DNA from: Escherichia coli
GTDB lineage: Bacteria; Pseudomonadota; Gammaproteobacteria; Enterobacterales; Enterobacteriaceae
Length of the DNA stretch: 64,000 bases
Assembly: GCF_030013205.1 (NCBI RefSeq)
Contig: NZ_CP122648.1
Reading direction: 5' to 3' (one strand)
The notes beneath the pieces are model-generated. The model was not told the DNA's origin, searched no databases, and was given only the letters and a program-made list of their open reading frames with translations. Made by a program: the position numbers and the translations under genes. Positions within the stretch are counted from its first letter, which is position 1. Each line of letters opens with the position of its first letter. Shown piece by piece: positions 53,855-54,955 of this stretch.

Positions 53855-54955
53855 ATGAAATTAAAAATAGTTGCGGTGGTTGTAACTGGTTTGTTAGCTG
53901 CGAACGTAGCACACGCTGCCGAAGTCTATAACAAGGATGGTAATAAACTCGACCTTTATGGCAAGGTTACCGCTCTACGTTATTTTACTGATGATAAGCG
54001 TGACGATGGTGATAAAACTTATGCCCGTCTCGGCTTTAAAGGAGAAACGCAAATCAATGATCAAATGATTGGTTTTGGTCACTGGGAATATGATTTTAAA
54101 GGCTATAACGATGAAGCCAACGGCTCGCGCGGTAACAAGACCCGTCTGGCCTATGCAGGTTTAAAAATTAGTGAATTTGGCTCTCTGGACTATGGTCGTA
54201 ACTACGGTGTCGGCTATGACATTGGTTCATGGACCGATATGTTACCAGAATTTGGTGGCGATACCTGGAGTCAGAAAGATGTCTTCATGACATACCGTAC
54301 TACCGGTGTGGCAACCTATCGCAACTACGATTTCTTCGGCTTAATTGAAGGTCTGAACTTTGCCGCGCAATATCAAGGCAAAAATGAACGCACTGACAAT
54401 GGTCATCTTTATGGTGCTGACTACACGCGTGCCAATGGTGACGGTTTCGGTATCTCCTCAACTTATGTTTATGATGGCTTTGGTATCGGTGCGGTGTATA
54501 CCAAATCCGATCGGACAAATGCGCAGGAAAGAGCCGCTGCTAATCCTCTCAATGCCTCCGGTAAGAATGCAGAACTGTGGGCTACAGGTATAAAATATGA
54601 TGCCAACAACATCTACTTTGCAGCTAATTACGCTGAAACATTAAACATGACCACCTATGGCGATGGTTATATCTCTAACAAAGCACAAAGTTTTGAAGTA
54701 GTGGCACAATATCAATTCGACTTCGGCTTGCGCCCATCACTCGCTTACCTGAAATCGAAAGGCAGAGATCTGGGCCGCTACGGCGACCAGGACATGATTG
54801 AGTATATCGACGTTGGTGCGACGTATTTCTTCAACAAAAATATGTCGACCTATGTTGATTATAAAATCAACCTGATTGATGAAAGCGACTTTACCCGTGC
54901 CGTAGATATTCGCACCGATAACATCGTCGCAACGGGCATTACCTATCAGTTCTAA
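53855..54955 (+). CDS. yddL: General porin of the OmpC/OmpF/PhoE family, full length (yddL position, 366 aa)
   Basis: Signal peptide ending [19 protein letters not shown] (classic porin N-terminus) and C-terminal ...TYQF; K-12 yddL is a fragment as I recall. Confidence 0.85.

Follow-up and report, generated by a model that had tools for sequence, protein, structure and literature searches.

An intact OmpD-type porin gene beside yddG in Escherichia coli and its deletion remnant yddL in K-12

What kind of gene stands at the position where E. coli K-12 carries the short yddL, and is it an old resident of the chromosome or part of an acquired island? An earlier note on the 64,000-nucleotide stretch of E. 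coli DNA analyzed here (the window) had proposed that this position holds a full-length classical porin with a signal peptide and a terminator of its own, of which K-12 retains only a fragment, and all four elements of that reading are confirmed. At 53855–54955, on the plus strand, 366 codons run on from an ATG uninterrupted by any stop or frameshift; they encode an OmpD-type porin of 366 aa (RefSeq "ompC"; Z2239 in strain EDL933). A Shine-Dalgarno sequence, AAGGA, can be read in the sequence 9 nt before the ATG (53841–53845, plus strand) and is kept in all orthologs of the upstream alignment. The signal peptide of 21 aa (53855–53917, plus strand), placed by alignment with solved mature porins and K-12 porins, ends in AHA and leaves a mature N-terminus, AEVYNKDG, that fits the family pattern AE(V/I)YNKDGNK; cleavage is set after residue 21 because the mature chains of the solved OmpC and OmpK36 align from residue 22 of the query. 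On the 3′ side, 12 nt past the stop, lies an intrinsic-terminator-like hairpin with a T-run, GACCAGCCC-TTCTCT-GGGCTGGTT (54967–54998, plus strand), whose paired part (54967–54990) has nine pairs, six of them G-C, and is followed by TTTTGATTT. At the same position, the K-12 strain MGY (an MG1655 derivative) has no full-length gene, only one of 276 nt annotated as "yddL: porin, incomplete, missing C-terminus". The comparison with known porins that the note had called for gives identities of 61.7% to OmpC, 60.3% to OmpF, 59.3% to PhoE and 62.9% to OmpN, and of 100%/99% to yddL over the shared stretch. The porin gene is thus real and intact.

The protein is a member of the general bacterial porin family, of the OmpC/OmpF/PhoE type. 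Its residues 27–366 match the Pfam Porin_1 profile (PF00267) end to end (positions 1–337 of 337, E=2e-134, 448.6 bits), and the solved structures of OmpK36, OmpC, OmpF and PhoE match it over the whole mature chain with E-values of about 1e-127 to 1e-119. An AlphaFold2 model built from 25 aligned relatives has 16 strands and is of moderate confidence (mean pLDDT 74.5, with loop L3 below 50); Foldseek aligns it with OmpC, OmpK36 and OmpF at TM-scores of 0.86–0.93. The PEFGGD motif of the constriction loop L3 (54245–54262, plus strand) is invariant in all aligned porins, the pore-constriction residues (K16, R42, R82, R132, D113 and E117 in OmpF numbering) are all kept in the alignment, and the C-terminus, GITYQF, retains the conserved terminal Phe. 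In general porins, the C-terminal aromatic residue is the β-signal recognized by the BAM machinery. By likeness to these relatives, we predict that the precursor would be exported through Sec and cleaved after the AHA at residue 21, that its C-terminal Phe signal would let BAM insert it into the outer membrane, and that it would assemble there as a trimer of 16-stranded β-barrels. Each pore would be narrowed by L3, with its PEFGGD motif and D113/E117, opposite the basic ladder K16/R42/R82/R132, and would pass small hydrophilic solutes, including β-lactams. Expression, trimeric channel activity, the substrates and any functional link to YddG are predicted properties of the porin.

Which porin this is emerges from its surroundings and its phylogeny. 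Immediately upstream lies yddG (52715–53596, plus strand), coding for an aromatic amino acid/drug-metabolite exporter (NCBIfam equivalog NF008676, 470 bits against a cut-off of 194). In a scan of 80 loci, one genome per species, 30 showed the same order as the window, with fdnG divergent from yddG and yddG followed by the best-matching porin. The yddG-porin synteny was found in E. albertii, Citrobacter, Enterobacter, Lelliottia, Intestinirhabdus and Salmonella enterica subsp. arizonae, and yddG is upstream of the porin at every syntenic orthologous locus; among the 80 loci, the fdnG/yddG context is missing around porins of at most 64% identity, save for two that occupy this very position. A neighbor-joining tree places the porin, with 100% bootstrap support, in a clade with OmpD, NmpC and Lc, apart from OmpC/OmpN and OmpF/PhoE; the branching order inside that clade is not resolved, and it is synteny that decides orthology and makes the gene the positional ortholog of OmpD. 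Its product is 92.6% identical to the E. albertii homolog, 77.6% to that of Citrobacter koseri, 73.9% each to the Salmonella "porin OmpD" and to Enterobacter hormaechei OmpD, and 68–69% to the prophage porins NmpC and Lc (68.7% for NmpC). The Escherichia branch is long, with 74% identity to Salmonella OmpD against 86–90% for YddG. We conclude with high confidence that Escherichia has in this gene its ortholog of OmpD, a general-diffusion porin of the enterobacteria, and that it is an ancestral chromosomal gene kept in this strain.

The region upstream of the gene bears on how it might be controlled. We compared the 215 nt before the start codon in eight orthologous sequences from six genera and found invariant blocks, among them GATCACA (53703–53709, plus strand), a TTTAAAAA..TGyCAT block and the Shine-Dalgarno sequence. 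With TGTGA-N6-TCACA as the CRP consensus, GATCACA could form the right half of a putative CRP-type site (TTCGA-N6-TCACA, 53694–53709). A candidate promoter (53746–53775, plus strand), with a −35 element TTGTTT (53746–53751), an 18-nt spacer and a −10 element TAAAAA (53770–53775), has its bases inside the conserved blocks; we place it there because the position of the conserved block fits the 69-nt 5′ UTR of Salmonella ompD (PMC3333887), which would give the porin a 5′ UTR of about 70 nt. Transcription would then start at the gene's own AT-rich promoter, conserved with that of Salmonella ompD, some 70 nt before the ATG and would end at the hairpin 12 nt past the stop.

Salmonella ompD is repressed by RybB, InvR, SdsR and MicC, which pair within its coding sequence (PMC3333887). 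We recovered the E. coli MicC and RybB sequences via Rfam and computed site-restricted duplexes at the published positions. At codons 7–9, GCGGTGGT (53873–53880, plus strand) can pair with the RybB 5′ seed GCCACUGC, two of the pairs being G·U, and is possibly a retained sRNA target. Its duplex has a ΔG of −13.7 kcal/mol, whereas that of GCAGTGGC in other genera reaches −17.4 to −18.3. The MicC target of Salmonella ompD at codons 23–26, as defined in PMC3333887, is degenerate at the corresponding site (53921–53932, plus strand), with a ΔG of −6.8 kcal/mol where S. enterica subsp. arizonae reaches −15.8, so that regulation of the porin may differ from that in Salmonella. Unconstrained duplexes of MicC (nt 1–30) and RybB (3 nt short) with the mRNA from −60 to +120 were long and looped, with z of about 0. 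By motif and complementarity, both CRP and RybB would be candidate regulators of the porin.

As to how much of the porin is made, we tentatively entertain the possibility that the OmpD ortholog is an expressed major porin beside OmpC and OmpF in its carriers (O157:H7/O55:H7, O145:H28, ST38 and others of phylogroups D/E/F), with measurable entry of β-lactams and carbapenems and recognition by phages, colicins and antibodies. A rather doubtful alternative is that the gene is intact but quiescent and, like ompN and nmpC, not appreciably expressed under ordinary conditions, in which case its presence would have little effect on permeability. The upstream region is indeed very AT-rich, its GC content of 27.5% being typical of H-NS-silenced DNA; the literature, searched under Z2239, ECs2076, EC042_1601 and the RefSeq protein accessions, yielded no work on the function or expression of the porin and no proteomic record of it; and quiescent porin genes are documented in E. 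coli (Prilipov 1998, as cited in PMC3333887). However, the promoter blocks are common to Salmonella ompD, which encodes a major porin, and the coding sequence has evolved under strong purifying selection, as judged by a dN/dS of 0.042 against the O157 allele (range 0.042–0.073 within E. coli) and of 0.024–0.032 against E. albertii. Values of 0.02–0.07 sustained over divergences up to a dS of about 1.5 argue that the porin is selected and hence must be made under some conditions.

In K-12, the same gene has been cut short. The locus alignment shows that K-12 lacks an interval of 1547 bp (54133–55679), which runs from codon 94 of the porin gene into the first of two leucine-rich-repeat (LRR) genes downstream, and the junction falls in a CGG microhomology within imperfect 9-nt repeats (CTCGCGCGG / CTCTCCCGG). 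Porin codon 93 is now followed, out of frame, by a piece of LRR gene 1, so that K-12 yddL (b1472) consists of codons 1–93 and three out-of-frame codons and encodes a 96-aa YddL ending in ...GSRG-KNL-stop. The promoter region of K-12 yddL is that of the porin gene (98–99% identical), and without 273 of the porin codons its product cannot form a barrel. A 2023 paper speculates about an osmotic role for the 96-aa YddL as a small outer-membrane protein (PMC9976479); YddL is better explained as a deletion remnant, and this K-12 "dark" gene is thereby settled. K-12 has lost another 652 bp in a second deletion, which fuses the two LRR genes to each other, and K-12 yddK and yddJ are likewise deletion remnants of that gene pair. 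The locus itself is already known, having been described in 2011 as O-island 62 of O157:H7 EDL933, a segment of 1,548 bp between yddG and narU with which the size of our K-12 deletion agrees; the same authors likened yddL to the 5′ end of Z2239, the first ORF of that island, and never name Z2239 a porin (Okeke et al. 2011, PMC3079680). The gene is already annotated in thousands of genomes.

The deletions also account for the distribution of the gene, which we counted across 5426 complete E. coli genomes. Of these, 4266 have the porin gene's first 278 nt, and 1101 (20.3%) have the 816 nt of its 3′ part that K-12 lacks. The exact K-12 junction is found in 3141 genomes (57.9%), and 1119 (20.6%) carry a different junction of the B2/Nissle type (e.g., Nissle 1917 and MS 200-1), in which a deletion of about 4.15 kb (window 53674–57827) has replaced the porin and both LRR genes by 9 nt and brought yddG up against narU. 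The three locus haplotypes together cover 98.8% of the genomes, and the patchy occurrence of the porin is thus traced to two single ancient deletions. Carriers include O157:H7, O55:H7, O145:H28, ST38 and O166:H15 strains, while Okeke et al. (PMC3079680) also list EAEC 042, UMN026, IAI39 and SMS-3-5 as carriers of O-island 62. The first 74–77 nt after yddG (53597–53673) are kept even in strains without the whole porin-LRR block; they contain a GTCGGG..CCCGGC hairpin without a T-run and may be a 3′ element of yddG.

The published account of O-island 62 suggests another origin, namely that the porin was recently acquired by horizontal transfer within the island and later lost or disrupted in K-12 (Okeke et al. 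2011). The island's GC content of 33–36% and its patchy distribution (PMC3079680) speak for it, and so do the LRR genes, which at 35.1% and 33.6% are as AT-rich as this view expects; we nevertheless judge it very improbable for the porin. The porin gene has a GC content of 44.1%, like other porin genes (44.7% in phoE and 46.6% in ompN), so that the figure of 33–36% fits the LRR genes only. Compared with the O157 allele, the window has a dS of 0.084 in the porin gene and of 0.081 in yddG, the core gene beside it, and this equality indicates that the two were inherited together. The yddG-porin arrangement is kept in six genera, and the patchiness is accounted for by two deletion junctions, each found in more than 1100 genomes. 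Only the LRR genes look foreign, being absent from the other genera. The porin is therefore an ancestral core gene that was lost twice in E. coli rather than a recent island gene, and "O-island 62" is a composite of this ancestral porin and acquired LRR genes.

The first of those genes (55119–56384, plus strand, 35% GC) encodes 421 aa from a GTG, with a probable ATG start at 55125, and is the intact form of what is split into Z2240/Z2241 in O157; it is a downstream neighbor that lies outside the porin unit. The second (56407–57699, plus strand, 34% GC, probable ATG at 56446) is an ortholog of EspR1, with 90% identity to the annotated T3SS effector EspR1 of O157:H7. In the 80-locus scan both were found only in Escherichia. 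Family scans gave weak SlrP/IpaH-type LRR matches for the pair and detected no ubiquitin-ligase (NEL) domain in either.

That the porin is a decaying pseudogene, still open by chance in the window strain, is more improbable still. Most of the species does lack the porin, and occasional carriers have an IS1-mediated deletion or a frameshift in it, but the ORF of the window has neither stop nor frameshift, and purifying selection on the gene is strong. Of 60 evenly spaced sampled carriers, 58 (~97%) are indel-free over the 816 nt, intactness being scored by the indel-free alignment length. The sole frameshifted porin (SCU-316) sits in an assembly whose neighboring genes are all frameshifted too, and the one remaining carrier has suffered an IS1-mediated deletion that took the yddG 3′ end and most of the porin. 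Reading intactness off the label "ompC: porin OmpC" was considered and rejected, as the label also covers the frameshifted pseudogene of SCU-316.

The window and strain K_EC180 are 99.96% identical over 52001–60000, and three single-base indels relative to the window leave the LRR genes "frameshifted" in the K_EC180 assembly. At window position 49252, in fdnH, the window has C and K_EC180 has A; the K_EC180 record has an internal stop in fdnH, which it marks as a pseudogene, whereas fdnH of the window is intact and differs from K-12 in a single residue (G212D). A SECIS_3 element (Rfam, 84 bits) lies inside fdnG on the minus strand (51843–51901), and this selenocysteine insertion element accounts for the in-frame TGA at which the ORF list breaks fdnG in two. 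Farther downstream, narZ (ORF 59374–62301) has lost its 3′ end, and an IS91-family element (ORFs 62383–62748 and 62703–63935) comes next; K_EC180 has the same narZ/IS91 arrangement, with an IS copy that differs at about 60 positions.

The least tenable view, to which we assign next to no likelihood, takes the RefSeq/PGAP label "ompC: porin OmpC" at face value and regards the gene as an additional copy or an allele of ompC: the porin passes the NCBIfam model NF007841 "porin OmpC" (495.3 bits against a cut-off of 484), which is a subfamily-type model and not an equivalog, but it shares only the 61.7% identity noted above with K-12 OmpC, belongs to another clade with 100% support, and occurs alongside a genuine ompC, which sits at its own locus (apbE-ompC-rcsD) and is also present in carrier genomes, giving two places per record. 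The label arises because the porin just clears this permissive model; tree and synteny refute it for the yddG-adjacent porin, and it is wrong. As a result of such labeling, about 1100 complete genomes carry two genes named ompC (RefSeq records such as NZ_CP062203.1). Two further database entries concern the same sequence. An 86%-identical porin "allele" (JAIJJM010000616.1, 1–1931) was considered as a natural recombinant and rejected; over the first 420 nt it matches genuine E. coli ompC at 98.6% identity, the remainder is 100% identical to this porin, with LRR gene 1 in addition, and it is most likely a metagenome-assembly chimera or an E. coli contaminant in a Collinsella sp. bin. The exact porin sequence (at least 1000 contigs) has also been put, through a clustering error, into a 90%-identity cluster represented by a 603-aa Roseburia LepA, and is for this reason missing from representative-based homology searches.

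What the porin means for its carriers is practical rather than conceptual. Analyses of porin loss in resistant E. coli usually score just ompC and ompF, and yet about 20% of complete genomes, including those of O157:H7 and the carbapenemase-associated ST38, have a third intact classical porin gene, the product of which could keep antibiotics entering or complicate the interpretation of porin loss. The apparent double ompC can, moreover, mislead automated resistance and typing pipelines. The earlier note had suggested that an extra porin could alter outer-membrane permeability and phage or antibiotic susceptibility; such an effect is plausible by analogy with E. hormaechei OmpD (PMC11874173). 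Should the porin prove to be a major one, it would have been overlooked because of the RefSeq "ompC" label and a literature that equates OmpD with nmpC, and its two ancient losses would be a trace of selection that acted, as the species diversified, on surface antigenicity or on the permeability of the outer membrane. Recognition of the yddL locus as the true counterpart of ompD also bears on the transfer of Salmonella OmpD biology to E. coli, in particular its sRNA control, its use as a vaccine antigen and its link to YddG.

Among known systems, OmpC, OmpF, PhoE and OmpN have the fold, pore architecture and constriction residues in common with the porin, but they are 59–63% identical to it, form separate clades and lie at other loci. 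They also have their own regulation (EnvZ/OmpR, Pho regulon). The NmpC/Lc porins of DLP12 and PA-2 belong to the same clade as the porin; they are, however, paralogs or xenologs borne by lambdoid prophages at other loci, and their signal peptide (MKKLTVAISAVAASVLMAMSAQA) differs from that of the yddG-adjacent porin. We considered and rejected the view that our gene is such a prophage porin, given its core chromosomal context: we found no phage genes near it in the window, and it is flanked by fdnGHI, yddG and narU, all of them core genes. In the literature on sRNAs and APEC, the prophage gene nmpC passes for the E. coli "OmpD" and is treated as the equivalent of Salmonella ompD (PMC3333887, PMC10321414); for the yddL/Z2239 locus, which holds the positional ortholog, that equation is wrong.

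The OmpD of E. hormaechei is a syntenic ortholog that likewise adjoins yddG, varies in presence and absence, and is lost by deletion, a single deletion of 2,384 nt disrupting both yddG and ompD (PMC11874173). In E. hormaechei, this protein imports carbapenems and has been linked experimentally to virulence (PMC11874173). In Salmonella, OmpD (STM1572, also annotated nmpC) occupies the same site, downstream of yddG and divergent from fdnG. Salmonella work cited in PMC4215857 covers smvA, yddG and ompD, and methyl viologen efflux is described there as needing both ompD and yddG (Santiviago 2002, as cited in PMC4215857). Salmonella OmpD and the E. coli porin share their clade, the upstream blocks and the Shine-Dalgarno sequence, and the RybB-complementary 8-mer at codons 7–9, weaker in the E. 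coli gene, may be a further common feature. They differ at about 26% of residues, mostly in surface loops, and in their setting: the yddG-porin intergenic region is 258 bp long here against about 460–630 bp in other genera, and in E. coli, unlike Salmonella, two LRR effector-type genes follow the porin.
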